Shown in pieces: positions 1,873 through 17,881 of a DNA stretch of 34,958 nt. The translations under genes were made by a program, and so were the position numbers. Under the pieces are notes generated by a model, which saw only the letters and a program-made list of their open reading frames with translations, was not told the origin of the DNA and made no database searches. This stretch comes from an uncultured Gammaproteobacteria bacterium (GTDB taxonomy: Bacteria; Patescibacteriota; Microgenomatia; UBA12405): the NCBI GenBank assembly GCA_964425635.1, contig CAYRMT010000002.1, positions 1 to 34,958 of the forward strand, in the 5' to 3' direction. The stretch's first letter is position 1, and the number at the start of each line of letters is the position of its first letter.

Positions 1873-2738
1873 TGGATTTCCATACCCCTGTCTTATTAAC
1901 CGAAACCATTGACCTTCTTGATGTCCAAAAAAATAAAATTTATATTGATTGTACTCTTGGTCATGGTGGCCACACCATAGAAATTCTCAAAAGAGGCGGT
2001 ATTGTTTACGGTATAGATCAAGATCCAAAAAATTTAGAAATCGCCACCAATCGAATCAAAGAGGCAGGTTTTGAAAAACATTTTTTTCCAATTCATAATA
2101 ATTTTAATCAATTAGAAAATATCGTTATTAACGATATTAAACAAAAGATCAATGGTTTAGTCATCGATCTCGGCCTTAGTCAAAATCAACAAACTGATCA
2201 AGATAGAGGATTTTCGTTCAACGACAAAAATTCTCTCGATATGAGATTAGACCCAGAAAATCAAGAACTTACCGCTGAAGAAATTATTAATACCTATGAC
2301 TATAATGAACTTTTCGAGATTTTTAGTAAGTACGCCCAAGAAGTGTATAGTAAACCACTAATTCTAAAAATAATCCGTGAACGTCAAAAAAAACCTATCA
2401 GAACAGCCACAAGACTGGCAAATATTATTCGAGATTACTATAAAGAACATCATCATCAATCTAAAATTGATCCCAGCACCAAAATATTTTTAAGTTTAAG
2501 AATCATAGTCAATGACGAATTCAACAATTTAAGAGACATTCTTAATCAAAGTCTAAAAATTGTTATTCCAAACGGTAACGTTTGTATTATTTCTTTTCAT
2601 TCTGGAGAAGATAGAATCATTAAACAATTTATAAAAGATCACAATTTCCCCTCAAAGCCAATCAAACCCTCTTTTGCTGAAATCAAAAAAAATCCTCTCT
2701 CTCGCTCAGCCACTCTAAGATCGTATAAAATAGTATAA
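1872..2738 (+). CDS. rsmH: 16S rRNA (cytosine1402-N4)-methyltransferase RsmH/MraW
   Basis: HTPVLLTETIDLL, DCTLGHGGHT, DLGLSQNQ and ISFHSGEDRI motifs, plus first position in the dcw cluster. Confidence 0.95.
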   Translation: MDFHTPVLLTETIDLLDVQKNKIYIDCTLGHGGHTIEILKRGGIVYGIDQDPKNLEIATNRIKEAGFEKHFFPIHNNFNQLENIVINDIKQKINGLVIDLGLSQNQQTDQDRGFSFNDKNSLDMRLDPENQELTAEEIINTYDYNELFEIFSKYAQEVYSKPLILKIIRERQKKPIRTATRLANIIRDYYKEHHHQSKIDPSTKIFLSLRIIVNDEFNNLRDILNQSLKIVIPNGNVCIISFHSGEDRIIKQFIKDHNFPSKPIKPSFAEIKKNPLSRSATLRSYKIV

Positions 2739-2739: not shown

Positions 2740-2997
2740 ATGTTAAACAAACCTCTTTTTTTATTTATCTTTTCTCTAATAATTATTCAAGTAATTTTTT
2801 CATTTTTTTATTCCAGTGAAATTATCAATCAAAACAATTTAATTAATCAAAATCAGACCAATCTCCAATTACTCAAAATTAAAAATCAAGAATTAGAAAA
2901 AGAATTAGCCACTCTTTCATCATTATCAAGAATCGAGGCCACTGCCAGTCAAAAAAATTATAAAAACTTAAAAGAAACTATTAATATTCAAAACTAA
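2740..2997 (+). CDS. FtsL-like small bitopic cell division protein
   Basis: 85 aa with an N-terminal TM helix followed by a coiled-coil (LQLLKIKNQELEKELATLSSLSRIEATA). Lies between rsmH and ftsI as in canonical dcw clusters. Confidence 0.6.
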   Translation: MLNKPLFLFIFSLIIIQVIFSFFYSSEIINQNNLINQNQTNLQLLKIKNQELEKELATLSSLSRIEATASQKNYKNLKETINIQN

Positions 2998-2998: not shown

Positions 2999-4651
2999 GT
3001 GCAAAATTCAAGACCAAAAATATTATCTATTGCCCTAACTTTTTGTTTTATGGTCGTTTCTTTTCGTTTTTTTTATTGGCAAGTTTTAAAAGCTCCAGAA
3101 TTAAAAGAAAAAGCTAAAAATCAAACTTATAAACTTGAAAAAATATTGCCAGAACGCGGGAAAATATATTCTTCCGACAATTTTCCTCTGGTTCTCAATC
3201 AAACAACCTATCAGCTTTCCCTTTATAAACCAAATTTTAAAGAAGATTTGAATACAATTTTAGACAAAATCGAACAAGTCTATACAAACTTTAAAACTGA
3301 AAATAGCGAAGCTCTAGAAAAATTTAAAAATAATCCCAACCAAAAATGGATAACCTTCAATTCTGCTCTAAATGAAAAACAAAAAGATTTACTTAATATA
3401 CCTGGAATTGAATTTCAAAAAATAGAAAAAAGATTTTACCCAGAAAATTCTATGGCTAAAGATATTTTAGGAACCATCGGTAAAGATTTTAGTGGAAACC
3501 AAATTGGATATGGCGGACTAGAAGCTTTTTATCAAAAACAATTACAGGGAAAAACCGGTTTTATTTGGGGACCTCAAGATGCCACCGGAAAAACTATTTT
3601 AAATAAAAAAAACTGGAGTTCTGATGCCATCAATGGTAGAAATATTTTTACCAACATCAATCGCAGTGCTCAATTTTATGTAGAAAAACTTCTTCAAAAA
3701 GGCATTAATGATTTCTCTGCTGATTCCGGTTCAATTACCATCATTCAACCAAAAACTGGAGCGATTTTAGCTATAGCCTCTCTTACCGCCACCAGTTCTG
3801 CTACCCCAAGTTCAATTAGAAACCCAGCTATTTCTGACCTTTTCGAACCTGGATCAATTTTTAAACCATTAGTAGTTTCTATGGCTCTCGACACCAAAAC
3901 CATCGACACTAATTATACTTGCATCAAATGTAACCAACCTCATATTATTGGCAAATACAATATCAGTAATTGGGACAATGAATTTCACGCTAACTCTAGT
4001 CTTCAAGATATTATAAAAAATTCCGATAATATCGGCATGAGTTATATTATTGCCAGACTTGGCCTTGATAATTTTTTAAATTATTATCAAAAACTAGGAC
4101 TCACCCAAAGAACTGGTATTGATCTTCAAGGCGAAGCCAAACCAACCGTCAAAACCGAATGGCCAGAAATTGATTTAGCCACCGCTTCTTTTGGACAGGG
4201 GGTTGTTGTTACTCAAATCGGGATGCTTCAAGCCTTCAATGTTATTGCCAACGATGGTATTTTGGTTAAACCTAAAGTTGTCAATTATTTCACCGAAAAT
4301 AATAAAATTATTAAAAATAAAAATCAAAAAGAAACACAAGTTTTTAACCCACAAACAATAAAAGAAATTAAATCTATTTTAAAATATTCAGTCGAAAACG
4401 GTGTTGTGGCTAAAATGAAACCAGAAAATCTTGAAGTTTGTGCTAAAAGTGGCACTGCACAAGTAGCTATTAGTGGTAGTTATGAAAATAATTCTTCAAC
4501 CATTGCTTCATACATTGGTTTTTCACCTTGTTATAATCCTAAATTTACTATGATTGTGACTATTAATAACCCAAAAACATCACCTTGGGGATCAAGTACA
4601 GCCGCTCCAATTTGGTATGAATTGGCATCAAAATTAAACGATTTGTTATAA
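2999..4651 (+). CDS. ftsI: penicillin-binding protein 2 / FtsI-type peptidoglycan D,D-transpeptidase
   Basis: GTG start, N-terminal TM helix, and transpeptidase motifs SIFK (SxxK), SDN (SxN) and KSGT. Confidence 0.9.
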   Translation: MQNSRPKILSIALTFCFMVVSFRFFYWQVLKAPELKEKAKNQTYKLEKILPERGKIYSSDNFPLVLNQTTYQLSLYKPNFKEDLNTILDKIEQVYTNFKTENSEALEKFKNNPNQKWITFNSALNEKQKDLLNIPGIEFQKIEKRFYPENSMAKDILGTIGKDFSGNQIGYGGLEAFYQKQLQGKTGFIWGPQDATGKTILNKKNWSSDAINGRNIFTNINRSAQFYVEKLLQKGINDFSADSGSITIIQPKTGAILAIASLTATSSATPSSIRNPAISDLFEPGSIFKPLVVSMALDTKTIDTNYTCIKCNQPHIIGKYNISNWDNEFHANSSLQDIIKNSDNIGMSYIIARLGLDNFLNYYQKLGLTQRTGIDLQGEAKPTVKTEWPEIDLATASFGQGVVVTQIGMLQAFNVIANDGILVKPKVVNYFTENNKIIKNKNQKETQVFNPQTIKEIKSILKYSVENGVVAKMKPENLEVCAKSGTAQVAISGSYENNSSTIASYIGFSPCYNPKFTMIVTINNPKTSPWGSSTAAPIWYELASKLNDLL

Positions 4652-4664
4652 TTGAATACTTTCA

Positions 4665-5966
4665 ATGGTTCAAAAATTCAAAAACGTCCTTATACATTTA
4701 CCAAAAAGTTTTTTTTACAATTTAAAGTACGGTTTTCCAAGTAAAAAATTAACTTTAATTGGTATCACTGGAACAGACGGCAAAACTACTACCTGCACCC
4801 TAGTTAATGAAATATTAAAACAATCTGGGCTAAAGACTGGATTAATTACTACTATTGGTGCAAAAATTGGGGATAAAGAAATAGATACTGGGTTTCACAC
4901 CACCACACCAGACCCGTCTATTCTTCAAAAAATTTTCAGCGACATGGTGAAAGCTGGCATTACTCATGTTGTCTGCGAAGTCACTTCACACGCCCTTGAT
5001 CAATATCGTTTTTGGGGTTGTAACTTTGAAATTTCTGGTATCACCAACACTTCACACGAACACCTTGATTATCATAAAAATTTAGAATCGTACATTGGAA
5101 CTAAATCTAAACTTTTCTCAATTTCTAAAAGCGCTATTCTGAACAAAGACGATCAATCGTTCGACTTAATAAAAAAACAAATTAAAATTCCTTTTAAAAC
5201 ATTTGGTATAAAAAAAACCTCAGATTATCAAGCCCAAAAAATTAAATTAGACTCAAATTCATTAAGTTTCCATGTTAATGGCCAAAAATTTATCACCGAT
5301 AGTAATTATGAATATCAAGTTTACAATATCCTTTTAGCAACCGCAATTTGTTATAAACTAGGAATAAAATCAGAAATAATTCAACAGGTAATAAAGCATT
5401 TTCCAGAAACAAAAGGTCGTCGAGAAGAAGTCCAAAATGAACTCAAATTTAAAACCATTATCGATTTTGCTCACACCCCATTTGCTCTTGAATCATCGCT
5501 TTCTTCACTCAAAAAAACTAATCCAGGAAAAACTATAGTCATTTTTGGAGCCACTGGTGGGCGAGATCAAAGTAAACGCCCAATAATGGGGGAAATCGTT
5601 TCTAAATTGGCCAATATAGCGTTAATCACATCCGACGACACCAGAAATGAAAAAATAGAAAATATCAACAAACAAATAATAAATGGTATTGATCCCAAAA
5701 AATCAGAACTAATTGATTATCAAGAAATTAAAAATAAAAAACAAATTCAAAAAGTAATTGAATTATCTAATAAAAAATTTATATATTTCAATATTCCCAA
5801 TCGTCAAGACGCATTTAATTTGGCCATAAAATTAGCTCAACCAGACGATGTCGTTATTGCTTGCGGTAAAGGCCACGAAACTACTATTCTTCACGGAAAT
5901 ACCGAGTATCCCTGGTCAGAAGCAGAGGCCTTCAGAACCGCTTTCAGGCTTCGAAAAACAAAATAA
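4665..5966 (+). CDS. murE: MurE-type Mur ligase (UDP-MurNAc-L-Ala-D-Glu:diamino acid ligase) lacking most of the N-terminal domain
   Basis: P-loop GITGTDGKTTT, HALDQYR, TNTSHEHLDYH, DFAHTP, GATGGRDQSKRP, TSDDTRNE (equivalent of the MurE DNPR motif) and GKGHE. Only about 35 residues precede the P-loop. Confidence 0.85.
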   Translation: MVQKFKNVLIHLPKSFFYNLKYGFPSKKLTLIGITGTDGKTTTCTLVNEILKQSGLKTGLITTIGAKIGDKEIDTGFHTTTPDPSILQKIFSDMVKAGITHVVCEVTSHALDQYRFWGCNFEISGITNTSHEHLDYHKNLESYIGTKSKLFSISKSAILNKDDQSFDLIKKQIKIPFKTFGIKKTSDYQAQKIKLDSNSLSFHVNGQKFITDSNYEYQVYNILLATAICYKLGIKSEIIQQVIKHFPETKGRREEVQNELKFKTIIDFAHTPFALESSLSSLKKTNPGKTIVIFGATGGRDQSKRPIMGEIVSKLANIALITSDDTRNEKIENINKQIINGIDPKKSELIDYQEIKNKKQIQKVIELSNKKFIYFNIPNRQDAFNLAIKLAQPDDVVIACGKGHETTILHGNTEYPWSEAEAFRTAFRLRKTK

Positions 5967-5967
5967 T

Positions 5968-6558
5968 ATGACAAAATTTAATTTAAAAAATACCAAAAGT
6001 ATTGATCAAAATTACCAAAATGGTCTTCTTCCTCAAAGGAATGACAAAAATTTATTTTATTCCCAAACCAGTTGTCGGTCTAATTTAAAAAATTTCAACT
6101 TAAGTTCTGAAAATCGTCGAATTTTAAGAAAAACAGAAGATTTCACCTTCGAAAAAATAAATCTAAAAGATTTCAACTACGATTCAAAAATTCAAAAAGA
6201 AATTACCATCTGGATAAAAACACTCGGTTGGAATTTTCCAGTCAGTTCAATAAAAAATGTTTTTAAAAACCATATTTTTAATTATCTTTACATATGGAAA
6301 GATGAACAAAAAAATATCATTGCCTATTCTCTTTGCTATTTTTCAAAAAACATTAGTCATATTGCCTATGTTTTTTATAATCCAGAATTCACCCATGGAA
6401 ATCTACCTATCCGTTTAGTTTTACAAGTCATCATCGACAGTCAAGAATTAGGTTTAAATTTTTGTTATCTCGGTCGCTTCTCTAAAAACACCGGTTTTTA
6501 TAAACGTAACATGCCAGGTTTTGAATATTATAAAGATAATCAATGGACTAAATTATGA
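5968..6558 (+). CDS. arginyl/leucyl-tRNA--protein transferase (ATE/Bpt) family homolog, minimal form
   Basis: The first ATG outside murE is at 5968, 1 nt after the murE stop; the 5848 start in the ORF track lies inside murE. Resembles Bpt/ATE: FNLSSENRRILRK (like the ATE_N LSRSQRR segment), and SHIAYVFYNPEF...LPIRLVLQVI...GLNFCYLGRFSKNTGFYKRNMPGFEYY...QW (like ATE_C FYDPE...YLGY...YK..F.P.E). ATGA overlap with the next gene. Confidence 0.6.
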   Translation: MTKFNLKNTKSIDQNYQNGLLPQRNDKNLFYSQTSCRSNLKNFNLSSENRRILRKTEDFTFEKINLKDFNYDSKIQKEITIWIKTLGWNFPVSSIKNVFKNHIFNYLYIWKDEQKNIIAYSLCYFSKNISHIAYVFYNPEFTHGNLPIRLVLQVIIDSQELGLNFCYLGRFSKNTGFYKRNMPGFEYYKDNQWTKL

Positions 6559-7928
6559 AAATACACATTTTAGGAATCGCCGGCACCATGACTGCTTCTC
6601 TAGCTGTCGCCCTTAAAAGAGAAGGTCACATTGTTTCTGGTTCCGACCAGGAAAAAATATATCCACCTATTAGTACTATCCTTAAAAAAGCCAATATTAA
6701 AATTAATTCATCCAAAATTGATTCCGATATAGATTTAGCTATCATCGGATCATCGTTCTCTAATTTTAAAAGAACTAAAGAAGAATTTGATCAAATTAAA
6801 AAATTAAAAATCAAATATGTTTCTGCCAGTGAATTTGTTGCTCAAAATTTGGGTAAAGAAAATTCAATTTTAATCGCTGGAACTTATGGTAAAACCACTA
6901 TTTCCTCCCTTGTTTCTTGGATTTTCGATCAAGCCAATTTAAAACCTAACTACATGTTTGGCGGGAAAGCCTTAAACCGCTTCCCATCAGTCAATAATTC
7001 ACCATCAAACTGGTCTATTATTGAAGCAGACGAATCAATTAATGGCCTCGATACTCAAGCTAAATTTTTATACTACCCGGTTAAATTTTTACTTTTAACC
7101 AGTGCTGATTGGGAGCACAAAGATTCTTATTCCACTGAAATCGAAAACTTTAATGCCTTCAAAAAATTAATTTTAAATATCCCCAAAGACGGCATTTTGT
7201 TTATCAATTCAAAAGGATATCAAACTAAAGAATTAAGTCTTTATTCAAAATCAAAAATAATTACCTACAATTCATCCACATCAGACTATTTTATTAAAGA
7301 TATAAAAATTAAAAAAAATTATACTATTCTATTCTGTCAAACTCCTAAAAATATTATTGAAATTAAAACCAAACTTATTGGTCAATTTAATTTTGAAAAC
7401 ATTTTGGCTGCCATTACTATCACTGATAGTTTAAACATTCCTCAAACTAAAATTAAACAGGCTATCTTAAAATTTAAGGGTATCAATCGTCGAATCGAAA
7501 AAATTTATGATTATAAAAAAATTATAATTTTTGACGATTTTGCCCAATCTCCCAATAGAATTAAATCAACGATTGAGGCTGTAAAATTACATTTTCCTAA
7601 AAACAAAATAAAAGTTTTATACCAACCCCACGCTTCTTTTATTCAACACAAAAAAAGTTTAAAAGAATTCAAAAACGTTTTTGATTCAGTTTCTGAAGTT
7701 GTTTTATCAAAATTAAGTTTTAATAATAAAATTAAAAAAAACAATCGTGTCACTGCCAAAAATTTTAAAGAGGTTATAGGTGATAAATTAATTTATCTTC
7801 CTGTTGACGAAGATATCCCTTCCTTTTACCAAAAAAATTTAACCCCAGGTGACATATTAATCAATATGAGTTCTGGTGGTTTAAGTGGAAATAAAATCAT
7901 CAAATCAATTATTAATTCTTTAAAATAA
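6555..7928 (+). CDS. mpl: Mur ligase of the Mpl/MurC family, closest in appearance to UDP-N-acetylmuramate:L-alanyl-gamma-D-glutamyl-diamino acid ligase (Mpl)
   Basis: N-terminus MKIHILGIAGTMTASLAVALKREGHIVSGSDQEKIYPPISTILKKANI, P-loop GTYGKTT, IIEADESI...KFLYYP, ADWEHKDSY, and C-terminus GDILINMSSGGLSGNKII. From memory these parallel E. coli Mpl (YPPMS, IIEADEYD, MSNGGFGG) better than MurC. Mpl versus MurC specificity cannot be settled by eye. Confidence 0.8.
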   Translation: MKIHILGIAGTMTASLAVALKREGHIVSGSDQEKIYPPISTILKKANIKINSSKIDSDIDLAIIGSSFSNFKRTKEEFDQIKKLKIKYVSASEFVAQNLGKENSILIAGTYGKTTISSLVSWIFDQANLKPNYMFGGKALNRFPSVNNSPSNWSIIEADESINGLDTQAKFLYYPVKFLLLTSADWEHKDSYSTEIENFNAFKKLILNIPKDGILFINSKGYQTKELSLYSKSKIITYNSSTSDYFIKDIKIKKNYTILFCQTPKNIIEIKTKLIGQFNFENILAAITITDSLNIPQTKIKQAILKFKGINRRIEKIYDYKKIIIFDDFAQSPNRIKSTIEAVKLHFPKNKIKVLYQPHASFIQHKKSLKEFKNVFDSVSEVVLSKLSFNNKIKKNNRVTAKNFKEVIGDKLIYLPVDEDIPSFYQKNLTPGDILINMSSGGLSGNKIIKSIINSLK

Positions 7929-7931
7929 TTT

Positions 7932-9260
7932 ATGTCCAGATACATTATTAATGGCGGCAAACCACTCAAAGGTGAGGTTTCGATTAGAGGTGCTAAAAAT
8001 GCCAGCTTTAAACAAATAATTGCTTCCATGCTAACCAATCAAACTGTCCGATTAAATAATGTTCCTCAAATTTCTGATGTAAAAATAACCACCAGTATTG
8101 CCAAAAATCTTGGTTGTCGAATAACTCAAACAGGGGATCATAGTCTTGAATTAACTACTCAAAAAATTATTAATTCTACTGTTCCTAGTGGTACTGGTGA
8201 AAAATCTAGATCATCATTTATGTTTGTTGCTCCTTTACTTACCAGAACTGGAACCGCCATCGTTCCAATTCCAGGTGGTGATAAGCTTGGCGATCGACCA
8301 TTGGACCGTCTTTTCGACTGTTTCTCTCAAATGAATATTAAAGTGTCTGAAAACGAAAACATTATTACTTTTAATACTGACAAAATTATTGGTACTCACT
8401 ACACTTTTACCAAACCATCACACACCGTCACTGAAGCTATTATCATGACTGCCGTTCTTGCCAACGGTGAAACAATCATTGACAATGCCGCCCTTGAACC
8501 AGAAATTGACGATTTAATTTTAATGTTAAATCAAATGGGGGCTAATATTCAAAGAGATTCCCAAAATAATAAAAGAATAGTTGTTCAGGGAGTTTCTAAA
8601 TTGAACGGAATAGAACACAACGTAATTTGTGATCGAAACGAAATTGTCACTTTTGCTTGTGCTGCCTTAGCCACCAAGGGCTCCGTTTCTATTTTTAGAG
8701 TCAAACCAAGCGTTGTTCAAACATTTTTAGAAATTATTAAAAAAATGGGAGCCAAAGTTAAAACCGGTAATGACGAAATTTATGTTGAATGGGTTAAACC
8801 ACTAACCAGTATTAATATTGAAACCGAACCAGAACCAGGATTTATGACCGATTGGCAGGCAATTTTTTCAGTCCTTTTAACTCAAAGTGTCGGTTGTAGT
8901 TCCATTATTGAAAAAGTCTATCCTAGTCGATTTCAACACATCGAAAATCTTAAAAAAATGGGAGTTAAAGTTAATTTTTTCAATCCAGAAATAAATAATC
9001 CCAAAGAATACTATCAGTTTAACCCAGAAAGTGACCGATTAGAATATTTCCATGGTGTTAAAATTTATGGCCCAACTAAATTAAAACCAGCCAATTTCAT
9101 TATTAAAGATCTTCGGGCAGGAGCTTCAGCTACAATTGCTGCTTTAACCGCATCAGGAAAATCAACTATTGATGGAGTTGAATATATTGAACGCGGATAT
9201 GAAAAATTAGCCGAGCGTCTTTGGTCTTTAGGTGCTAACATAGAATATATAAAAACATAA
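7932..9260 (+). CDS. murA: UDP-N-acetylglucosamine 1-carboxyvinyltransferase (MurA), Asp-type active site
   Basis: Full-length enolpyruvyl transferase: ISGAKNA-like IRGAKNAS, the active-site loop PIPGGDKLGDRPLD, and the C-terminal LRAGASATIAAL and ERGYEKL motifs. Confidence 0.95.
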   Translation: MSRYIINGGKPLKGEVSIRGAKNASFKQIIASMLTNQTVRLNNVPQISDVKITTSIAKNLGCRITQTGDHSLELTTQKIINSTVPSGTGEKSRSSFMFVAPLLTRTGTAIVPIPGGDKLGDRPLDRLFDCFSQMNIKVSENENIITFNTDKIIGTHYTFTKPSHTVTEAIIMTAVLANGETIIDNAALEPEIDDLILMLNQMGANIQRDSQNNKRIVVQGVSKLNGIEHNVICDRNEIVTFACAALATKGSVSIFRVKPSVVQTFLEIIKKMGAKVKTGNDEIYVEWVKPLTSINIETEPEPGFMTDWQAIFSVLLTQSVGCSSIIEKVYPSRFQHIENLKKMGVKVNFFNPEINNPKEYYQFNPESDRLEYFHGVKIYGPTKLKPANFIIKDLRAGASATIAALTASGKSTIDGVEYIERGYEKLAERLWSLGANIEYIKT

Positions 9261-9264
9261 TTTT

Positions 9265-10299
9265 ATGATTCATTTATACTTAGGTCTACTTCTCTTTTCT
9301 TTTTTAATAACCAGTATTTTGGTTGTCCCTTTTATTAATCTCCTTTATAAATTTAAATTTCAACGACAAACCCAAAAAACTACCGATTTTCAAAACAAAA
9401 GAGCTACTATTTTTGACAAATTTCACAACCAAAAATCAGGCACGCCAGTCGGTGGTGGCTTATTGATCATCGTTACTGTTTCTATTCTTTTTATTTTACT
9501 TTTCCCTATTCTCAAATTTTCCAAAATTTTTATTTCATCAAACTACACCATCACTCACGAAATCGCCATTCTATTTTTTACTTTTATCAGTTTTGGATTA
9601 CTCGGTCTTTACGATGACATTCTAAAATTTTTTGGATTCAAAAAAACCGGATTTTTCGGATTGAGAATGATCTATAAGTTAATATTACAATTAATAATTT
9701 CCCTAATCATTTCTCTAATGATTTATTTTCAACTAAGAATTGATTTTATCTATTTGCCCTTTTTTGGAGTTATTAATTTAGGGTGGCTTTTTATTCCAGT
9801 TTCAGTCGTTTTTATTACTGGGTTTGCTAATTTCTTTAATATCACCGATGGTCTTGATGGTTTATCATGCGGTCTTCTAATGTTTGCTCTTTTTGCTTTT
9901 TGGATTCTTGCCAGCACTTCAATGGACACTGTTCTTTCATCTTTTTTAGCCCTCTGGATTGGATCTCTAATTGCATTTCTTTATTTTAATGTTTACCCAG
10001 CCAGAATCTGGCTCGGCGATGTTGGTTCGCTTTCTTTTGGTGCCACTTTTGCCGTAATTGCTTTACTTCTAGGCAAAGTGGTTCCTTTACTTATTGTTGG
10101 GTCCCCATTTATCATTGAAGGATTATCCAGTACTATTCAATTATTCAGTAAAAAATATTTTCACAAGAAAATTTTTCCAGCTGCTCCAATTCATTTAACT
10201 CTTCAAAATTTAGGATGGGAAGAGCCAAAAATTGTTTTTAGAGCTTGGTTGGCTGGAATTATATTAGCAGTTTTTGGACTATGGTTAGGACTAAATTAG
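9265..10299 (+). CDS. mraY: phospho-N-acetylmuramoyl-pentapeptide transferase (MraY)
   Basis: Polytopic membrane protein with the NITDGLDGL, GDVGSL and QLFSKK..KIFPAAPIHL motifs. Confidence 0.95.
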   Translation: MIHLYLGLLLFSFLITSILVVPFINLLYKFKFQRQTQKTTDFQNKRATIFDKFHNQKSGTPVGGGLLIIVTVSILFILLFPILKFSKIFISSNYTITHEIAILFFTFISFGLLGLYDDILKFFGFKKTGFFGLRMIYKLILQLIISLIISLMIYFQLRIDFIYLPFFGVINLGWLFIPVSVVFITGFANFFNITDGLDGLSCGLLMFALFAFWILASTSMDTVLSSFLALWIGSLIAFLYFNVYPARIWLGDVGSLSFGATFAVIALLLGKVVPLLIVGSPFIIEGLSSTIQLFSKKYFHKKIFPAAPIHLTLQNLGWEEPKIVFRAWLAGIILAVFGLWLGLN

Positions 10300-10820
10300 A
10301 ATTACAACAAGAGATAGAAAAATATATTGGCCTACCTTATAGTAAAAATATTCTTAAAGACAGAAAAATAATCAAAGAACAATTTCTTGGAGGTAAGGGT
10401 AATTGTCTCCAAATTGCCACTGAAACCATCAGGCTCGCTCAAAAACAAAAAATAGATTTAACTAAATTAAACAATCAAGAATTTTATAATTTCCAAAAAA
10501 AGAATCATATTGGTATCGATTGCTCTGGTCTTGCTTGCCAATTATTAAACTTTTATTTTAGTTCTGAATTAAATCCTCGCAAAACTTCTGCCAATATGCT
10601 CACTTCCGCTCCAATTTCCAAAAAAATAAAACCAAACGAAATTAAAACAGGGGATTTGGTTCGACAAAAAAACGGTCATCACGTTTTATTTATAATTGAA
10701 AAAGAAGGCGATAAAATTCTTTATGTCGACAGCTCTCGCGAAGGCAGGGGAGTCAAATATAGTGTCGCCAATATCACCGACAAATCATTTATCCATCAAG
10801 GCTTTTTTAGATTGAATTAA
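10281..10820 (+). CDS. NlpC/P60-family cysteine peptidase-like protein, no signal peptide
   Basis: The first ATG is at 10281; the 10245 start in the ORF track is a TTG deep inside mraY. GIDCSGLACQLL carries the nucleophile Cys and GDLVRQKNGHHVLFII the His, matching the NlpC/P60 DCSGf / GDLvf..HVgiy pattern. The hydrophilic N-terminus suggests a cytoplasmic location. Confidence 0.65.
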   Translation: MVRTKLELQQEIEKYIGLPYSKNILKDRKIIKEQFLGGKGNCLQIATETIRLAQKQKIDLTKLNNQEFYNFQKKNHIGIDCSGLACQLLNFYFSSELNPRKTSANMLTSAPISKKIKPNEIKTGDLVRQKNGHHVLFIIEKEGDKILYVDSSREGRGVKYSVANITDKSFIHQGFFRLN

Positions 10821-10824
10821 TCTA

Positions 10825-10983
10825 TTATTTCTCTTCAATTAATTCCCTGTATTTCAACGGTTTTAAAGATAAAATCTCAACCTCAGTTCCACATTCAGGG
10901 CACTCAATTATATCTCCAACCATCGTGGCTTCTATTAATTCAATTTCTGTTTTACAATCAGGACAAATAACTTTTTCGTTCAT
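10825..10983 (-). CDS. LysW-like zinc-ribbon small protein (candidate amino-group carrier protein); absent from the supplied ORF track
   Basis: My translation gives 52 aa: MNEKVICPDCKTEIELIEATMVGDIIECPECGTEVEILSLKPLKYRELIEEK. It has an ATG start, a TAA stop and two CPxC knuckles. The layout mirrors Thermus LysW as I recall it (CPECGAEL...GELVVCEDCGAELEV..LDPLRL + acidic tail), but the tail ends EEK rather than EDWGE. Confidence 0.55.
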   Translation of the reverse strand: MNEKVICPDCKTEIELIEATMVGDIIECPECGTEVEILSLKPLKYRELIEEK

Positions 10984-11023
10984 ATTTTATTAAAATTAAT
11001 AACTAGTATAATTAAACTATTAT

Positions 11024-11845
11024 ATGGCAAATACACCTTTAATTAAATTAGAAAATGTTTATCTCAAAAGAGAAGACTTAAACGAAACTGGTTCTGCTAA
11101 AGATCGGGCTATGTTTTTTCAAATCGAAAATTTAAAAAAACAGGGTTTTAAAAATGCCGTAATTTCTAGTACTGGTAATGCTGCTATTTCTGCTGCCCAT
11201 TTTTGCCATTTAAATCAAATTGATTTAACTATTTTTGTTTCACCAAAAATCAATAAAGCTAAATTTGATTTACTTAAAAAAGATGGTGGTCAAATTTTTA
11301 TTACTGATCAACCCATCAGTGAATCTATAAAATTTTCCAAAAAAAATCATACTTATCTTCTTCGTCAATCAACCGATCCTAGTGCCCTAATTGGCTACCA
11401 AGAAATCGGCAAAGAATTAATGAATGAATTACCCCAAATTACCAGTATTTTCATCCCAGTTGGTAGCGGTACTACTCTTTTAGGAATCTCCCAAGTACTG
11501 CCATCATCAGTAAAAATCTATGCCATTCAACCAGCTAGCAATTGCCCCTTGTCTAAATTTTTTGATTCAAACTACCAATCAGAAACAGAAAATATAACCG
11601 ATGCCTTATCTGCTAAATTTCTTCCTTTAAAATCTCAAATAATTTCAACCATCAAAAATAGTGGCGGAACTGGTTTAGTTATTCAAAATAATGAAATTTT
11701 AGAAGCCCAAAAAATACTAGATTCAAATGAAATTAAAACATCTCTTGAGGGTGCCATGGCTTTAGCAGGCTTTAAAAAAGCTATCAAAAATAACCTAAAT
11801 ATTGGTAATTATCCAGTCATAATTTTAACCGGATGTCAAAGATAA
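11024..11845 (+). CDS. fold-type II PLP-dependent enzyme, threonine synthase / Trp-synthase-beta (PALP) family, short form
   Basis: TPLIKLENVYLKREDLNETGSAKDR carries the PLP lysine, followed by ISSTGNAAISAAHF and IPVGSGTTLLG (phosphate-binding loop). At 273 aa it is shorter than typical ThrC. Confidence 0.75.
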   Translation: MANTPLIKLENVYLKREDLNETGSAKDRAMFFQIENLKKQGFKNAVISSTGNAAISAAHFCHLNQIDLTIFVSPKINKAKFDLLKKDGGQIFITDQPISESIKFSKKNHTYLLRQSTDPSALIGYQEIGKELMNELPQITSIFIPVGSGTTLLGISQVLPSSVKIYAIQPASNCPLSKFFDSNYQSETENITDALSAKFLPLKSQIISTIKNSGGTGLVIQNNEILEAQKILDSNEIKTSLEGAMALAGFKKAIKNNLNIGNYPVIILTGCQR

Positions 11846-12939
11846 ATTTAGAAAAAATTATCAACAATTCTCCTTATATTTTCTTTTTTTTAGTGGTCGA
11901 TAAATATTTAGACATTGATATCCCTAAATTAAAAAACTTTGAAAAAATCTATCTTTCAGACTATCCGTCGATCAAAGAAAAAAACAGTGGCAAATTATTA
12001 TCAAATTCAAAAGTTATTGATTTTATTCTTAAAAAATCTCAAAAAGCCAAACTCACACCTGCTATCATTCCTTTCAAACCATCTGCCAAAATTGACTTGA
12101 TTTGTCAAAAAAATAATTGGGTAAGTATTAGTAATCCAGGCCCCATTAATCGTTTTTTGGAAGACAAAATTAAATTTGCCAAACTTTGTCAAAAATATAA
12201 ATTATCAACTATTCCTTTTTCTATCGATACTTTCTCACAAAAAAATTTTTTGAAATACCAAAAGCTGTACGGTAAAAAATTAGTTATTCAAACCCATTTT
12301 GGTTGGGCAGGTAATAGTACATTTTCGGCCGAATCTTGGGATGAAATTAAAAACAAAATTTCTTCTGGTATCATCGTAAAATACAGTCCTTTTATTCAAT
12401 CTTCTTACTCTTTACTAAATAATTGCTGTCTTACCAAATTTGGTTTAATTCAAAGCCCGCCCGCCCTTCAATACACCGGAATTTCTCCATACACCAAAAA
12501 TCCTTTTACCACCGTCGGTCGCCAATGGCCATCCTTTGCTCCATTAAAAACAAAAGGTGAAATTAATAAAATAACTGAAAAATTCGGTAAAATTTTAAAA
12601 GAAATTGGCTACAAAGGTTTTTTTGGTCTCGACTTTTTGGTCTATAAAAACAAAGTTTTTTTATTAGAATGCAATCCTCGTTTAACTGCCTCTTTTGGTT
12701 TTTACACAACAATAGAAGAAAAACAAAATATTACCCCTCTCTTTTATTTTCATCTTGCCGAATTTTTAAAACTTGATTATCAAATCGATATTAAAAAAGA
12801 AAAGACCAGATTTAACAATAAAAAAATTATCGGTTCAGAACTAACTCCTAAAGATAAAAATAATCATACCTGTCAAAAATTAAACTTTAATTTTCCTTTA
12901 TCAAAAACCACTAATCCTATTTCTCTAAAAATTAAATGA
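11833..12939 (+). CDS. ATP-grasp family carboxylate-amine ligase, specificity unknown
   Basis: C-terminal ATP-grasp core: KLVIQTHFGWAGNSTF, GYKGFFGLDFLVYKNKVFLLECNPRLTASFG. Overlaps the upstream PLP gene by 13 nt and the ftsW start by ATGA. Does not look like Ddl or a Mur ligase. Confidence 0.7.
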   Translation: MSKINLEKIINNSPYIFFFLVVDKYLDIDIPKLKNFEKIYLSDYPSIKEKNSGKLLSNSKVIDFILKKSQKAKLTPAIIPFKPSAKIDLICQKNNWVSISNPGPINRFLEDKIKFAKLCQKYKLSTIPFSIDTFSQKNFLKYQKLYGKKLVIQTHFGWAGNSTFSAESWDEIKNKISSGIIVKYSPFIQSSYSLLNNCCLTKFGLIQSPPALQYTGISPYTKNPFTTVGRQWPSFAPLKTKGEINKITEKFGKILKEIGYKGFFGLDFLVYKNKVFLLECNPRLTASFGFYTTIEEKQNITPLFYFHLAEFLKLDYQIDIKKEKTRFNNKKIIGSELTPKDKNNHTCQKLNFNFPLSKTTNPISLKIK

Positions 12940-14102
12940 AAGAAACTAAATCCCCACTTTTATTTTTAGTTTTCAGTTTGGTCTTTATTGGACTAATTTT
13001 TATTTCCATCTCATCATTAAGTGAAGCCAGCTCATCAATTGGAGACAAATTTTTTTACATTAAAAAACAAGTATTTTGGCTAATTTTAGGAATATTTTCT
13101 TTTTATATAACTTCCAAAATAAATATTAAAACCATTAAAAAATTTTCTTTCGCTCTTTATACTATTTCCATCCTTGGACTAATATTAGTTTTAATTCCAA
13201 GTTTAGGCAACGAAGCCCTCGGTGCCAGACGCTGGCTAAATTTAGGTTTCACCAGTATTCAACCTTCAGAAATTTTAAAATTAACCTCCATTATTTATTT
13301 TTCTTTTCTTTTTTCAAAAAAAGAAAATCTTCATATAAAAAATCTTATTTTTTATCTTGGTTTGCCATTCATTTTAATAATTATCGAACCAAATTTAAGC
13401 ACCGCTATTTTAATTTCAGCTATTGTCAGTTCCATTTATTATCTTTCTGGAGGAGATATTGTCCCTTTGTTTAGTATTTTTAGTATTATTCTAATTGTCA
13501 GTATTCCCTTAATTTTTTTATCACCATACAGATCAGCCAGATTAAAAACTTTTTTAGAACCGCAGCAAAATCAAGAAACTTCCTCATATCACAGCAACCA
13601 AATAATTTTAACCCTATCTTCTGGAGGAATTTTTGGTAAAGGTTTTGCCAATTCAGACCAAAAATACAAATTCCTTCCTAAAATTTCCACCGATTCAATC
13701 CTTGCTGTTATTGGTGAAGAAGTTGGTTTTATAGGAATTTTTGCAGTTCTTTTAATTTATCTTTCTTTAATAAATTATCTTTTAAAATTTTCTCAAACAA
13801 TCGACGATCCATTTCAAAGTTTAATAGTATCCGGAAGCGCCTGTTGGATTGCTTATCAAAGTTTAATCAATATTTCTGCCATCACTGCTCTTATTCCACT
13901 CACCGGGGTCACTCTTCCATTTATTTCCTATGGCGGCTCTTCACTTATTACACTTTTTGTCGTTATTGGTCTGGTTAGAAATATCGAAAAAAACCAAAAA
14001 AAATTGTTATACTCAAAGAGTGAACAAGACAAAAAAGACGATCATAATCACCGGAACACATCTAACACCAGCCCTAGAACTAATTCGTCAATTGAAAGCT
14101 GA
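12936..14102 (+). CDS. ftsW: SEDS-family peptidoglycan glycosyltransferase FtsW
   Basis: Ten-TM-type protein with RWLNLGFTSIQPSEILKL, SDSILAVIGEEVGFIG and LPFISYGGSSL motifs, at the dcw position before murG. The hydrophilic tail overlaps the murG start region. Confidence 0.9.
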   Translation: MKETKSPLLFLVFSLVFIGLIFISISSLSEASSSIGDKFFYIKKQVFWLILGIFSFYITSKINIKTIKKFSFALYTISILGLILVLIPSLGNEALGARRWLNLGFTSIQPSEILKLTSIIYFSFLFSKKENLHIKNLIFYLGLPFILIIIEPNLSTAILISAIVSSIYYLSGGDIVPLFSIFSIILIVSIPLIFLSPYRSARLKTFLEPQQNQETSSYHSNQIILTLSSGGIFGKGFANSDQKYKFLPKISTDSILAVIGEEVGFIGIFAVLLIYLSLINYLLKFSQTIDDPFQSLIVSGSACWIAYQSLINISAITALIPLTGVTLPFISYGGSSLITLFVVIGLVRNIEKNQKKLLYSKSEQDKKDDHNHRNTSNTSPRTNSSIES

Positions 14103-15096
14103 TAAAAAAAATGATTGGCAAATAAATTACATCGGTCGAAAAAATAATTCTAGTGTCGACAAAAATCCTTCGATTGAATCAAAAATTATCCCAAAAACAG
14201 GTATTAAGTTTTATTCAATTAATTGTGGTAAATTTGATCGCCGTTGGGTTCCTAATACTATTAAAGGTCTTCCGCAAACCATTAAATCATTATTTGAAGC
14301 CTCAAAATTAATCAAAAAAATAAAACCAGACATAGTTATTTCCTTTGGTGGATACGTTTCTGTTCCGGTTATTATTAGTAGTTTTTTTAGAAAAATACCA
14401 TCAATTACCCACGAACAAACTTTAACCAACAGCTTAACCACTAAAATCAATAGTTTTTTTGTCAACAAAATCGCTCTTTCTTTTAACAATCAGCAACAAA
14501 AAGAAAAACTACCAAAAAACAAAATTGTTGTTACAGGAAATCTCTTAAGGCAAGAATTGTTTCACCCTCAAAAAAATAAAATAGGGGACAACATCGACAT
14601 TTTTATAACTGCTGGCAATCAAGGCTCTCATGTAATAAATATTTTAATTAAAAAAATTCTTCCTGAATTAAAAAATTATTATATTATTCACCAAACAGGT
14701 AAAAAAGATTTTTTTAGTTTTAAAAAATTAACTAAAATTCATCCTAAATATAAAGTTTTTGATTATCTAGAATCAAAAGATATGGCCTATGTTTTAAACA
14801 AGACAAAACTAGTTGTTGGCCGTTCCGGCGCCAACACTTGTCAAGAAATTGTCGCCCTAAACAAAAAATCTATTTTAATTCCCCTAAAAATCAGTCAACA
14901 AAATGAACAATTACTAAATGCTCTTTGGGTTAAAGAAAAAAACCCAAAAAATACCCAAATTTTAGAAGAAAAAGATATTACTGAAAAAAATATTTTAGAA
15001 AAAATTAAAAAATTAATTACCAATAAAAACAAAAAAAACATTTCTAAAAACACTGATAACCTAAAACTTTTAAATTTAATCCATGAAATTCTTTAA
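14020..15096 (+). CDS. murG: undecaprenyldiphospho-muramoylpentapeptide beta-N-acetylglucosaminyltransferase (MurG)
   Basis: GT28 features: N-terminal beta-strand plus loop IIITGTHLTPALEL (degenerate form of GGTGGH..PAL), FGGYVSVPV, GRSGANTCQEIVALNKKSILIP. The frame is open from the ATG at 13930, deep in ftsW. I favour the GTG at 14020 (VNKTKKTIIITG), but the start is uncertain. Confidence 0.85.
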   Translation: MNKTKKTIIITGTHLTPALELIRQLKADKKNDWQINYIGRKNNSSVDKNPSIESKIIPKTGIKFYSINCGKFDRRWVPNTIKGLPQTIKSLFEASKLIKKIKPDIVISFGGYVSVPVIISSFFRKIPSITHEQTLTNSLTTKINSFFVNKIALSFNNQQQKEKLPKNKIVVTGNLLRQELFHPQKNKIGDNIDIFITAGNQGSHVINILIKKILPELKNYYIIHQTGKKDFFSFKKLTKIHPKYKVFDYLESKDMAYVLNKTKLVVGRSGANTCQEIVALNKKSILIPLKISQQNEQLLNALWVKEKNPKNTQILEEKDITEKNILEKIKKLITNKNKKNISKNTDNLKLLNLIHEIL

Positions 15097-15466
15097 AATT
15101 TTTCTTTTTATTGTCTTTTTTATAAGTCTTTCATTTTCCATATATTCATACAACATTTCTTCTGTAGAAAAAATTAATCCAGTTTCTGATAAAAACAATT
15201 TTTATTTTCAATTAGAACATGGTTTTAAAATTGCTCAAATCAATAATACAAATAACCTTATTAAGGATTATCAAAATCAATTAGAATTCTATATAATTAA
15301 TGAAAGCAATAACCCGACAAAAATTATTTTGTCTACTCAAAAAAATCCTTATTGGCAAATTGCTTCTTTACAAGAAATTTTAAAAGTAGCTAAAATTAAC
15401 AATAAACAACTACAATTAGTTGATCTCAGTATCAACCATCCATATGCAACATTCAAAAATAATTAA
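15083..15466 (+). CDS. minimal FtsQ/DivIB-like bitopic protein (no obvious POTRA domain)
   Basis: 127 aa with an N-terminal TM helix. Sits in the ftsQ slot between murG and ftsA. The C-terminal [15 protein letters not shown] resembles the FtsQ iDLRf.n.v.v segment. Assignment rests mostly on position. Confidence 0.45.
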   Translation: MKFFKIFLFIVFFISLSFSIYSYNISSVEKINPVSDKNNFYFQLEHGFKIAQINNTNNLIKDYQNQLEFYIINESNNPTKIILSTQKNPYWQIASLQEILKVAKINNKQLQLVDLSINHPYATFKNN

Positions 15467-16700
15467 TGTAATCGATATCGGTACTTCAAAAGTAACCACA
15501 CTAGTTGGACAATATCTAGACACTGAAGACAAATTTAATATAATTGCTGTTTCTTCAATTCCATCCCTTGGTTTTCGTAAAGGCCAAATAATAAATTTAG
15601 AACAAGCCTCTCAAACCATCACTCAAAGTATTGAATCTGCTGAGAGAATGGCTGGTTTTCAAATAAATAGTGCCCATATTTCTATTTCCGCTCCCCACAT
15701 CGAATCAATTAATTCTCATGGTGTTGTTGCTATTAGTAATCCAAATGGCGAAATAGATATCAACGATATCACTCGTGTTACCGAAGCTGCTAAAGCTATT
15801 TCTTTACCAAGTGGTAAAGAAATAATCCACATCATCCAAAGAAAATTCACTGTCGACGGTCAAGAAGGAGTCATCGATCCTATCGGAATGAACGGCATTA
15901 GACTTGAAGTTGAGGCAAATCTAATTTTAGCTTCTAGCCCAGCTCTTAAAAACCTTAAAAAATGTCTTGAAGATATTGGTATTAAAGTCGAATCCTTAAC
16001 TTATACTGGTCTCAGCACTGCCACCGCTGCTTTAACCGACACTGAAAAAGAACTCGGTGTCGCTCTTGTTGATATTGGTGGAAGTATTACCAATATCACT
16101 ATTTTTATCGAAGGTTCGCCGGTATTTTCATCTGTTGTTCCAATTGGTGCCAACAATGTTACCAACGACCTAGCCATTGGTCTTCGATTTTCAATTGAAG
16201 ATGCTGAAAAAATAAAATTAAAATTGGCTAAATTATTTGAAAATAAAAAATTCGAAGACGAAGTTGAATTGTCTCATTTTGATATTCATTCTGAAGATAA
16301 GAAAAAGATTTCTCTCCAGACTGCCATCAATGGTATTATTAAACCTCGATTAGAAGAAATATTTAATTTAATATATGCCCAAATTGAGTCCAGTGGTTTT
16401 CATCAATCAATTCCCGCTGGAATCGTTTTAACTGGTGGTGGTGCTATGACTGTTAACGCAAAAGAAATCTGCAATCGAACTATTCCTCTCCCATTAAGAA
16501 TTGCCAATCCACCAAAAGTAGGTGGTATAGTTGATGATATTATGAATCCAGCTTATACTAGCACTATTGGTCTTTTACTTTATAATAAAAATGCTAAAAA
16601 AAGCAGTGGTTCAAGTACTAAAGGTATAAAAACCCCAAAAATTTCCATGGGCGGAGTTTTTGAAAAGATCAAAAAAATACTAGAACCGCTCTTACCCTAA
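15444..16700 (+). CDS. ftsA: cell division protein FtsA
   Basis: Actin-fold motifs VIDIGTSKV and [16 protein letters not shown], and a C-terminal amphipathic helix [15 protein letters not shown]. The ATG at 15444 is preferred over 15420. Confidence 0.95.
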
Positions 16701-16702: not shown

Positions 16703-17881
16703 ATGGGATTAATTAAAACTCTTACCGGACAATTTGCCAAAATAAAAGTCATCGGAGTCGGTGGCGGTGGTAATAATGCTATTAATTCAATGATAGCCGA
16801 AGATGCCATTAAAGGTGTCGATTTTATCGCTGTTAATACCGATTCTCAAGCTCTTTTAAATTCTCTTGCTTCCATTAAAATTCAAATTGGTGAAAAATTA
16901 ACCAAGGGTCTTGGCGCTGGTGGTAACCCTCAAATGGGACAAAAAGCTGCCGAAGAATCAAAAGAAAGAATCAAAGAAGTTCTACAAGGCATCGATATGG
17001 TTTTTGTCACTGGTGGTATGGGTGGCGGCACTTGTACTGGGGCCGCTCCAGTTATCGCTCAAATTGCTAAAAAAGAACTAGGGATCCTAACAATCGGTGT
17101 TGTCACTAAACCATTTTTATTTGAAGGCACTCGACGTATGACCAATGCCGAGGAAGGAATTTCTCAATTAAGAGAAAACGTTGACACTCTTATTGTTATT
17201 CCCAACCAAAAGGTTATGGAGGTCGTCAATAATAAAGCCACCCTTTTAGAGGCCTTTAAAATTGCCGATTCTGTCTTAAGTAAAGGAACCAAAGCTATTG
17301 CTGACTTAATCACTGTTCCCGGATTAATAAATCTAGATTTTGCCGATATTAAGGCTGTTATGAGTAACGCTGGTTCTGCCCTTATGGGCACCGGTGAGGC
17401 CGAAGGTGAAAATAGAATTCAAAAAGCTGTCGAAGATGCCGTTGATTCTCCTTTGGTCGAAGTCAATATTGAAGGGGCTAGGGGAATCCTGATTAATGTT
17501 ACTGGTGGTCCCGACATCACCATGGCCGAGATTGAAGAAGCAGCCAGAAACATCACTGAAAGAACAGCCCCAGATGCCAATATTATTTTCGGAGCCACTA
17601 TCGACAAAGAACTTAAGGGTAAAGTTAAAATTTCCGTTATTGCCACAGGCTTTGACACCAACCGTGCTAGTCTTTATCAACATATTAAAAAACCACAACC
17701 AACTTTAATAAATTTACCTAATCAACCAAAAACTGAAACTCCAGAAGTCAAAAAAACAACCGAACCAAATGAACTAAATAATAATCAAATAAATGAATTC
17801 TTAAAAAATAAAGAAGTTCCTACTGGTATCGACATTATCGATGAATATGACATCCCCGCTTTTTTAAGAAAAAATAAATAA
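16703..17881 (+). CDS. ftsZ: cell division GTPase FtsZ
   Basis: [11 protein letters not shown], the tubulin signature [16 protein letters not shown], and the C-terminal peptide DIPAFLRKN. Confidence 0.97.

Follow-up and report, generated by a model that had tools for sequence, protein, structure and literature searches.

A Division and Cell Wall Cluster of Shapirobacteria-Type Microgenomatia without Ordinary murC and murD and with Six Conserved Atypical Genes

Introduction

Among walled bacteria the cytoplasmic Mur pathway is regarded as near-universal, and many antibiotics are aimed at it as a major target. Here we describe the division and cell wall (dcw) cluster carried by a 35-kb window, by which we mean the whole stretch of DNA that was analyzed (contig CAYRMT010000002.1, 34,958 nucleotides). 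The cluster resembles canonical dcw clusters in its backbone order and in its MurA, MraY, MurG and MurE catalytic core, all of which are orthologous to the canonical proteins. It differs from them in having neither murD nor a murC with an L-Ala pocket, in encoding a MurE without domain 1, and in carrying six inserted genes; the window also lacks murB, ddl and murF, which the clusters of sister lineages have.

Several described systems resemble parts of this cluster. The closest parallel to an early step that departs from the canonical one, and the only documented deviation that we found, is the MurD2/MurL system of Xanthomonas (PMC8788868). There a divergent MurD is paired with a dedicated system for the D-configuration of residue 2 in organisms that have no glutamate racemase; the proteins, however, are unrelated, with a carrier, an ATP-grasp ligase, a pyridoxal phosphate (PLP) enzyme and a cysteine peptidase in place of MurL. 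The LysW/ArgW carrier pathways of Thermus, Sulfolobus and Thermococcus, and of Streptomyces secondary metabolism, set a small acidic zinc ribbon beside an ATP-grasp ligase, a modifying enzyme and a hydrolase, and follow a load-modify-unload logic. The window has the same kind of neighborhood in a peptidoglycan context, but its carrier tail reads ...EEK rather than ...EDWGE, its ATP-grasp protein is of the carboxylase/carbamoyl-phosphate synthetase (CPS) type rather than the RimK/LysX type, its hydrolase is NlpC/P60 rather than the M20 protein LysK, and genes for LysZ, LysY and LysJ are missing. A GNAT-like aminoacyl-tRNA transferase fold, predicted for one of the inserted proteins, is common to the N-end-rule enzymes ATE1 and Bpt and to FemX/MurM, the latter being a precedent for tRNA-dependent steps on wall precursors; the window protein resembles ATE1 more than Fem, has no Cys-rich ATE_N domain and is coupled, or in one lineage fused, to a Mur ligase. 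Finally, glutathionylspermidine synthetase/amidase combines an ATP-grasp domain with a CHAP/NlpC-P60-type amidase in one protein, a pairing that recurs in one of the fusions described below and acts on the same kind of amide bond, although the substrate and pathway are unrelated.

To our knowledge, no LysW-type carrier, ATE1-fold transferase, carboxylase-type ATP-grasp protein or ThrC-like PLP enzyme had been linked to wall synthesis. A full-text literature search found no description of this cluster or of its module, and the pseudomurein papers describe archaeal clusters only, with no mention of the candidate phyla radiation (CPR). The component families are all known; their combination, their fusions and their placement in a dcw cluster are new.

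Results and Discussion

A dcw Cluster Fixed across a CPR Lineage

Genes in the window were called from an open reading frame (ORF) listing together with Pfam and NCBIfam scans, and the resulting features are collected in Table 1. They bear out the gene order given by a first-pass annotation of the same DNA and show that the atypical genes it listed are real. The order is rsmH-ftsL-ftsI-murE (without N-domain)-ATE-like-MurC/Mpl-like-murA-mraY-NlpC/P60-like-LysW-like (reverse strand)-PLP enzyme-ATP-grasp-ftsW-murG-ftsQ-ftsA-ftsZ, and the canonical backbone, rsmH-ftsL-ftsI-murE-...-mraY-...-ftsW-murG-...-ftsA-ftsZ, is retained within it, FtsW, FtsI, FtsA and FtsZ being canonical too. The junctions quoted earlier are exact: 1 nt lies between the end of the MurE gene at 5966 and the ATE-like start at 5968, ATGA overlaps occur at 6555-6558 (ATE-like gene and ligase gene) and 12936-12939 (ATP-grasp gene and ftsW), and the PLP gene, ending at 11845, overlaps by 13 nt the ATP-grasp gene that starts at 11833. 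The ftsI stop falls 14 nt before the MurE start. The identities of the called genes hold, while three starts are likely to be at 5968 (ATE-like), 10281 (NlpC-like) and ∼14092 (murG) rather than where they were first placed. A promoter and terminator scan of positions 4400-15400 gave sites no commoner than in shuffled sequence and is uninformative in DNA this AT-rich (∼31% GC over the window).

The window is the dcw cluster of a Candidatus Shapirobacteria-type member of the Microgenomatia (CPR/Patescibacteria), and its contig was recovered in three sequencing runs. Scanning one genome per GTDB species with an alignment of the ATP-grasp protein gave 80 loci, at ATP-grasp identities of 42-87%. 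The related loci of this type number 87 (L001-L087), the 80 species representatives among them, and their ORFs were labeled by BLAST and by hidden Markov models (HMMs) built from the lineage. In every one of these loci that spans it, the arrangement murE (without N-domain)-ATE-like-ligase-(murA)-mraY-NlpC-like-LysW-like (reverse strand)-PLP-ATP-grasp-ftsW-murG is identical, and the gene order is the same in all 80 species-level loci. This is far beyond chance and marks the arrangement as a fixed feature of the lineage rather than a product of shuffling. Homologues of the ATP-grasp and ATE-like proteins carry the names Candidatus Shapirobacteria, Woesebacteria or Patescibacteria. All six atypical proteins have conserved catalytic motifs and long runs of invariant residues, with median identities of 50-63% as against 78% for MraY; their genes are under purifying selection and rigidly syntenic across the whole CPR lineage.

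Many of the species-representative contigs (L010, L011 and L016-L018 among them) are titled "uncultured Gammaproteobacteria bacterium" despite their CPR dcw cluster, and L087 (DATMWB010000015.1), with the same cluster, is titled "Candidatus Methanoperedens sp."; these mismatches are wrong record titles or contaminated bins.

Which Canonical Genes Are Replaced

The scanned ORFs of the window, namely all of at least 80 amino acids (aa) apart from three short ones lying over larger genes, together with the 52-aa LysW-like ORF, include no murD, murF, murB, ddl, alr or murI. The first-pass annotation had likewise found no murD, murF, murB or ddl here. The same holds more widely: the window and the 87 related loci contain no murF, murD, canonical murC, murB or ddl, and murD and a normal murC (with the L-Ala pocket) are absent from every related atypical cluster, those of sister lineages included, where each locus was read to 10 kb on either side of the match.

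These absences do not all mean the same thing. MurA is retained and its product needs MurB. The atypical proteins include no flavoprotein reductase, and one or more genes of the pathway must therefore lie outside the window. The SxxK (SIFK), SxN (SDN) and K(S/T)G (KSG) motifs of FtsI are kept across 55 orthologues. A penicillin-binding protein (PBP) with such transpeptidase motifs depends on a D-Ala-D-Ala donor, for which Ddl and MurF are still needed.

A search of 1.84 billion representatives with the ATP-grasp profile revealed a wider family of 430-490 aa in Woesebacteria, Gottesmanbacteria, CPR3 and other Patescibacteria. In one of the clusters so found (L095) the order is murE (without N-domain)-ATE-like-ligase-murB-murA-ddl-murF-mraY-NlpC-LysW (reverse strand)-PLP-ATP-grasp-ftsW-murG-...-ftsZ, that is, every canonical pathway gene is present except murD and a normal murC. 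The Woesebacteria-type cluster L088 is similar, with a ddl at 325.8 bits, above cutoff, and a murF at 287.9 bits. Because these sister clusters keep murB, ddl and murF beside the atypical genes, the three have not been replaced, and the earlier proposal that the atypical genes take over their functions does not survive. Most likely murB, ddl and murF have moved to another place in the window's genome. The window is a compact derivative whose cluster they have left, as are L093 and L135. The non-canonical part of the pathway is narrower than first proposed: it covers the MurC and MurD steps and possibly also the supply of D-Glu.

Within L088, a SAM (S-adenosylmethionine) methyltransferase gene and a reverse-strand murB lie between the PLP and ATP-grasp genes (8142-9984), and an 81-aa ORF (11342-11587) lies between the ATP-grasp gene and ddl.

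Two Units within the Atypical Genes

A module of NlpC-like, MurD-like, LysW-like (reverse strand), PLP and ATP-grasp genes also occurs away from dcw clusters. Gottesmanbacteria and CPR3 have it, as do no fewer than 15 other metagenome loci. Its MurD-like ligase scores 168-186 bits or more with TIGR01087 (best E-value 1.5e-76). The module in the window is this one minus MurD, the missing gene falling exactly at the NlpC/LysW junction, and it lies between mraY and ftsW, the murD position of canonical clusters (L114-L134). Fused genes define the groupings further. P0395 is a PLP::ATP-grasp fusion and P0319 an ATP-grasp::NlpC/P60 fusion, the NlpC/P60 part of which scores 62.7 bits, and both loci also hold MurD-like and LysW-like genes; L093 encodes a 645-aa fusion of an ATE-like part (residues 1-193) to a ligase part (residues 220-644). 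On this basis the atypical genes group as two functional units. Unit A consists of the N-domain-less MurE, the ATE1/Bpt-fold transferase and the Mpl-like MurC-family ligase; Unit B, in the usual murD slot, consists of the NlpC/P60 peptidase, the LysW-like protein, the fold-type-II PLP enzyme and the carboxylase-type ATP-grasp protein.

Unit A

The MurE of the window scores 346.7 bits with TIGR01085 (cutoff 257.3) and contains the PF08245 and PF02875 domains. Its match begins at model position 77 and aligns to residues 101-430 of E. coli MurE, and residues 1-100 of the latter, the uridine-binding domain 1, have no counterpart. As the first-pass annotation had remarked for this one protein, the nucleotide-binding N-domain is lacking, and the loss is universal in the lineage: the domain is missing in all atypical clusters, where MurE measures 399-443 aa, and present in the canonical clusters recovered whole, where it measures ∼460-595 aa (the low-GC canonical clusters L111, L115, L122 and L132, for which no taxon was assignable, were left out as CPR controls). 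In place of the E. coli DNPR motif the window protein has DDTR, which keeps the Arg that, according to the literature, selects the distal carboxylate.

For the ATE-like protein, the family scores are low (ATE_C in Pfam, 21.8 bits versus a cutoff of 25; NCBIfam, 31.7 bits versus 267), and neither the Cys-rich ATE_N domain nor the FemAB family gave a match in the Pfam and NCBIfam scans and in Pfam, respectively. An AlphaFold2 (AF2) model with a predicted local distance difference test score (pLDDT) of 90.4 was compared with known structures by Foldseek. The top matches are ATE1 of human, yeast and K. lactis, with probability 1.0 and TM-scores to the query (TMq) of 0.65-0.76, and after these the model matches only other aminoacyl-tRNA transferases: the MprF aminoacyl-phosphatidylglycerol synthases, the aminoacyl-tRNA-dependent peptide synthase Sba18 and FemX (TMq 0.52-0.53). 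The model thus supports the aminoacyl-tRNA-dependent transferase fold first assigned to this protein.

The ligase falls below the cutoffs of both candidate families, with 242.2 bits for murC (TIGR01082, cutoff 335.1) and 171.7 bits for mpl (TIGR01081, cutoff 388.7); its L088 orthologue reaches 221.5 bits with the latter model. Its best match in the PDB is 3hn7, the Psychrobacter Mpl of the depositors' paper (PMC3060825). According to that paper, the features specific to Mpl are a GI(C/G)GTFM loop, Tyr35, an (S/T)AFFDKRSK loop absent from Mur ligases, and Phe374-Ala375, and MurC binds L-Ala through Tyr346, His348, His376, Arg377 and Arg380 (H. influenzae numbering). A residue-level alignment places GIAGTMT at the first loop in the window ligase and G(I/L)AG(T/S/H)M(T/S) in its CPR orthologues. 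All CPR orthologues conserve (I/V)YPP (IYPP in the window, with the Tyr35 equivalent) and DDFAQS, which stands where MurC has DDYGHH, and all have an 8-9-residue insertion at the site of the Mpl loop. In the window this insertion, SINGLDTQAKF, is similar in length to the Mpl loop but unlike (S/T)AFFDKRSK in sequence, and Tyr182 is replaced by Ser. The QPH-R(Y/F)(S/T)RT segment of MurC (QPHRYSRT) is replaced by PHASF(I/L)Q (PHASFIQ in the window), with loss of Arg377 and Arg380; Tyr346 and His348 are missing too, so that of the L-Ala-binding set only the His of QPH remains. Canonical MurC proteins from other loci have none of the Mpl-type features and show the opposite pattern.

To judge from these residues, the ligase pocket is Mpl-like, and the Mpl-like label of the first-pass annotation finds its support at the level of motifs rather than of overall score. 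In common with Mpl of E. coli and Psychrobacter, enzymes of wall recycling (PMC3060825), the ligase carries a bulky residue in its N-terminal loop, the IYPP Tyr, an insertion at the position of the Mpl-specific loop, DDFA and no MurC arginines. It differs from them in its score (172 bits, with a cutoff of 388.7), in its loop sequence, and in its position inside a dcw cluster as apparently the sole MurC-family gene, a setting more suggestive of biosynthesis than of recycling.

Unit B

The NlpC-like protein narrowly exceeds the PF00877 cutoff (24.1 bits versus 23), and the Cys of its GxDCSG motif and the His are invariant. It has no signal peptide. Compared as a profile with the PDB, it matched Spr/MepS only marginally, in the region of the catalytic Cys, and specificity could not be read from these matches. 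The LysW-like protein scores 45.1 bits with PF21344 (cutoff 27) and 37.2 bits with TIGR01206 (cutoff 53.2). True LysW proteins end in ...EDWGE, with a final Glu, whereas the tail here is ...E-L-(I/V)-E-E-K (ELIEEK in the window), and 95 of 96 sequences, drawn from every lineage examined, keep the terminal Lys.

The PLP enzyme, a PALP protein (152.7 bits), has its PLP-binding Lys in a SAKDR motif. Its best NCBIfam match is to small threonine synthases (101.7 bits versus a cutoff of 358), with which it shares only that Lys and the phosphate loop, and its PDB neighbors, Thr deaminase, CysK, Ser racemase and ThrC, lie at about equal distances. Assignment by sequence as a racemase or as a replacement enzyme was attempted and abandoned, the protein being equidistant from both.

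For the ATP-grasp protein, an AF2 model (pLDDT 91.9) has PurK, biotin carboxylase, PurD and PurT as Foldseek neighbors at TM-scores of 0.55-0.63, and profile and sequence comparisons with the PDB match only CPS and biotin carboxylase. We considered a LysX/RimK- or Ddl-type assignment and rejected it, these neighbors being generic and allowing no substrate to be inferred. Neither Dala_Dala_lig_N nor Dala_Dala_lig_C matched the window protein in the Pfam and NCBIfam scans, and a role as Ddl substitute was also rejected, as a genuine Ddl adjoins its orthologue in L088 and L095. Scans of the window found no kinase, reductase or aminotransferase near Unit B. The Shapirobacteria forms, at 365-395 aa, are ∼60-80 C-terminal residues shorter than the 435-460-aa forms of L088, L095 and L135. 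One further locus (L094:10001-11377) holds a lone paralogue without LysW, PLP or NlpC genes, amid glycosyltransferases, a NUDIX gene, RadC and a PPDK_N protein, indicating that the ATP-grasp family has uses beyond the module.

A Possible Route to the Stem Peptide

From the gene content, synteny, fusions, folds and motifs described above we infer every substrate, and the order of steps, in the following route, which we regard as possible though short of probable. An L-Ala-D-Glu-diamino acid peptide would be assembled off the nucleotide, on a LysW-type carrier and with aminoacyl-tRNA, and then attached to UDP-N-acetylmuramic acid (UDP-MurNAc) by the Mpl-like ligase. The PLP enzyme would provide D-Glu, whose amino group the ATP-grasp protein would link to the C-terminus of the LysW-like carrier, as in the load step of LysW pathways. 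MurE, no longer in need of its UDP-binding domain, could then place the diamino acid on the gamma-carboxyl of the carrier-bound N-acyl-D-Glu, and the NlpC/P60 peptidase would free gamma-D-Glu-diamino acid. The ATE-like enzyme would transfer L-Ala from Ala-tRNA to the N-terminal Glu, the type of acceptor used by the ATE/Bpt family, and the Mpl-like ligase would join L-Ala-gamma-D-Glu-X to UDP-MurNAc, after which Ddl and MurF, and then MraY and MurG, would act as usual. The count of bonds would be that of the canonical pathway, with five peptide or amide bonds and five bond-forming enzymes (the Mpl-like ligase, the ATE-like protein, the N-domain-less MurE, MurF and Ddl). The L095 cluster encodes all five candidates, together with MurA/MurB, MraY, MurG and Unit B.

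Several points weigh against this route. Each chemical step in it is drawn from the chemistry of the families and from the neighborhood of the genes. The overall HMM scores place the ligase nearer MurC (242 bits) than Mpl (172 bits), the carrier ends in Lys and not in the Glu of known LysW proteins, the PLP enzyme looks at least as much like ThrC/CysK as like racemases, and the ATP-grasp protein, by sequence and model, is not of the LysX/RimK type. We know of no ATE/Bpt enzyme with D-Glu as acceptor or Ala-tRNA as donor. Beside a MurD-like ligase, a cycle of loading and unloading D-Glu looks unnecessary and a carrier is hard to account for, and the genomes with a MurD-like module, which sits outside their dcw clusters, could still hold an ATE-like gene. 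Finally, the absence of murC and murD is established for the cluster, read to 10 kb per side, and either gene may lie elsewhere in the genome.

The most serious alternative, though an unlikely one, is that the atypical genes decorate the wall precursor: murC, murD, murF, murB, ddl and murI would all lie elsewhere, the ATE-like protein would be an analogue of FemX/MurM that adds a cross-bridge residue at position 3, Unit B would supply D-Glu or another D-amino acid to MurD or modify its alpha-carboxyl, and the Mpl-like ligase would recycle wall peptides. The cluster is an incomplete inventory in any case, with murB, ddl and murF outside the window; many lineages have a MurD-like ligase next to Unit B; the structural neighbors of the ATE-like protein include FemX and Sba18; and sortase, which is tied to a Gram-positive-type wall, is near-ubiquitous in Microgenomates (PMC6744442). 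However, L095 gathers all pathway genes but murD and a normal murC in one cluster, the sole MurC-family gene lacks the L-Ala-binding arginines, MurE lacks its UDP domain, and genomes of ∼1 Mb whose metabolism is so sparse would hardly be expected to keep two versions of a ligase.

Salvage, the core idea of the first-pass annotation, would have host wall peptides imported and trimmed by the cytoplasmic NlpC/P60 protein, and the tripeptide rejoined to UDP-MurNAc by the Mpl-like ligase, with the other genes repairing or extending the fragments. The Mpl-like motifs of the ligase agree with this, as does the resemblance of a cytoplasmic NlpC/P60 protein to recycling peptidases, of which YkfC is one, and the CPR lifestyle is episymbiotic with a sparse metabolism. 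We nonetheless find salvage improbable, as it makes MurE, the ATP-grasp protein, the PLP enzyme, the carrier and the aminoacyl-tRNA transferase superfluous, yet all of them are under strong purifying selection, and the window scans found no peptide transporter in or beside the cluster.

A shade less probable again is that Unit B is a minimal amino-group-carrier pathway making the position-3 diamino acid, a surrogate for diaminopimelic acid, in which the carrier would shield the alpha-amino group, the PLP enzyme would carry out a beta- or gamma-replacement on the side chain and the NlpC/P60 protein would release the product. LysW carriers do protect the alpha-amino group, the proteins that the PLP enzyme most resembles (ThrC, CysK and SbnA) are replacement enzymes, and the DNPR-motif Arg that binds the distal carboxylate is retained in MurE; the module, however, goes with the murD slot and with MurD-like genes rather than with murE, and its ATP-grasp protein and carrier tail differ from LysX and LysW. 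The strict form of the first reading, a joint replacement of murC, murD, murF, murB and ddl, has in its favor that all five are missing from the window and its 87 relatives, but it is contradicted by L088 and L095 and asks of the atypical proteins a MurB chemistry beyond any of them when MurA is kept and FtsI retains its DD-transpeptidase motifs, which makes it highly improbable.

Whichever of these applies, a large uncultivated lineage has a rigidly conserved cluster without an ordinary gene for the MurC and MurD steps. Annotation pipelines risk calling such genomes incomplete for the peptidoglycan pathway, or mislabeling the genes as arginyltransferase, biotin carboxylase and threonine synthase. 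If the carrier-based route is true, carrier-protein amino acid chemistry extends into primary cell-wall metabolism, ATE/Bpt enzymes gain a non-proteolytic role, the source of D-Glu in metabolically minimal CPR cells is explained, and lineage-specific targets for drugs and probes come into view. The broader claim, that this is a third way to the stem peptide (a carrier-built tripeptide, L-Ala added by an ATE1-family transferase, attachment in one step by an Mpl-like ligase) and that MurC and MurD are dispensable in a whole CPR class, seems to us doubtful at present, and that the route is categorically new we doubt slightly more.

Other Features of the Window

Table 1. Features of the dcw cluster in the window
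Feature	Coordinates	Strand	Evidence
rsmH (mraW), first gene of the dcw cluster	1872..2738	+	PF01795, 272.6 bits
ftsL/DivIC-like small membrane protein	2740..2997	+	weak DivIC match, 20.4 bits; position conserved
ftsI, class B PBP	2999..4651	+	PF00905, 202 bits; PBP_dimer
MurE without N-terminal UDP-binding domain, 433 aa	4665..5966	+	TIGR01085, 346.7 bits
ATE1/Bpt-fold aminoacyl-tRNA-dependent transferase (predicted), 196 aa	5968..6558	+	ATE_C, E-value 3e-4; AF2 and Foldseek
MurC/Mpl-family UDP-MurNAc ligase with Mpl-type motifs	6555..7928	+	murC 242 bits, mpl 172 bits
murA	7932..9260	+	TIGR01072, 419 bits, above cutoff
mraY	9265..10299	+	TIGR00445, 162.6 bits; PF00953
NlpC/P60-like cysteine peptidase or amidase, cytoplasmic (predicted), 179 aa	10281..10820	+	PF00877, 24.1 bits
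LysW-like zinc-ribbon protein, 52 aa	10825..10983	-	PF21344, 45.1 bits
Fold-type-II PLP enzyme, ThrC/CysK-like, 273 aa	11024..11845	+	PALP, 152.7 bits
ATP-grasp ligase, carboxylase/CPS type, 368 aa, directly 5' of ftsW	11833..12939	+	ATP-grasp_3, 31.3 bits; NF005096, 103 bits
ftsW	12936..14102	+	TIGR02614, 309 bits
murG	14092..15096	+	TIGR01133, 190 bits; longest ORF from 13930, gene-caller start ∼14092
Small membrane protein in ftsQ position, 127 aa	15083..15466	+	no Pfam match; position conserved
ftsA	15444..16700	+	FtsA and SHS2_FTSA domains
ftsZ	16703..17881	+	Tubulin and FtsZ_C domains

The stretch upstream of rsmH (108-1872) lacks mraZ and encodes instead a class-II aminoacyl-tRNA synthetase (tRNA-synt_2b and HGTP anticodon domain) along with a 237-aa membrane-anchored protein that matches no family; both genes are conserved in Woesebacteria-like loci. 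On the 3' side of ftsZ (18894-24235) follow ileS, a second SEDS gene (rodA-like), rplU, rpmA and parB, in an order conserved across the lineage. A tRNA-Val (24876-24950) overlaps the 5' end of the longest ORF at 24923-27361 on the reverse strand, which encodes an 812-aa LCAT/alpha-beta-hydrolase protein whose true start is probably further downstream. The nucleoside diphosphate kinase at 32047-32694 is 215 aa long and matches its Pfam family in two stretches, which suggests an insertion or an N-terminal extension.

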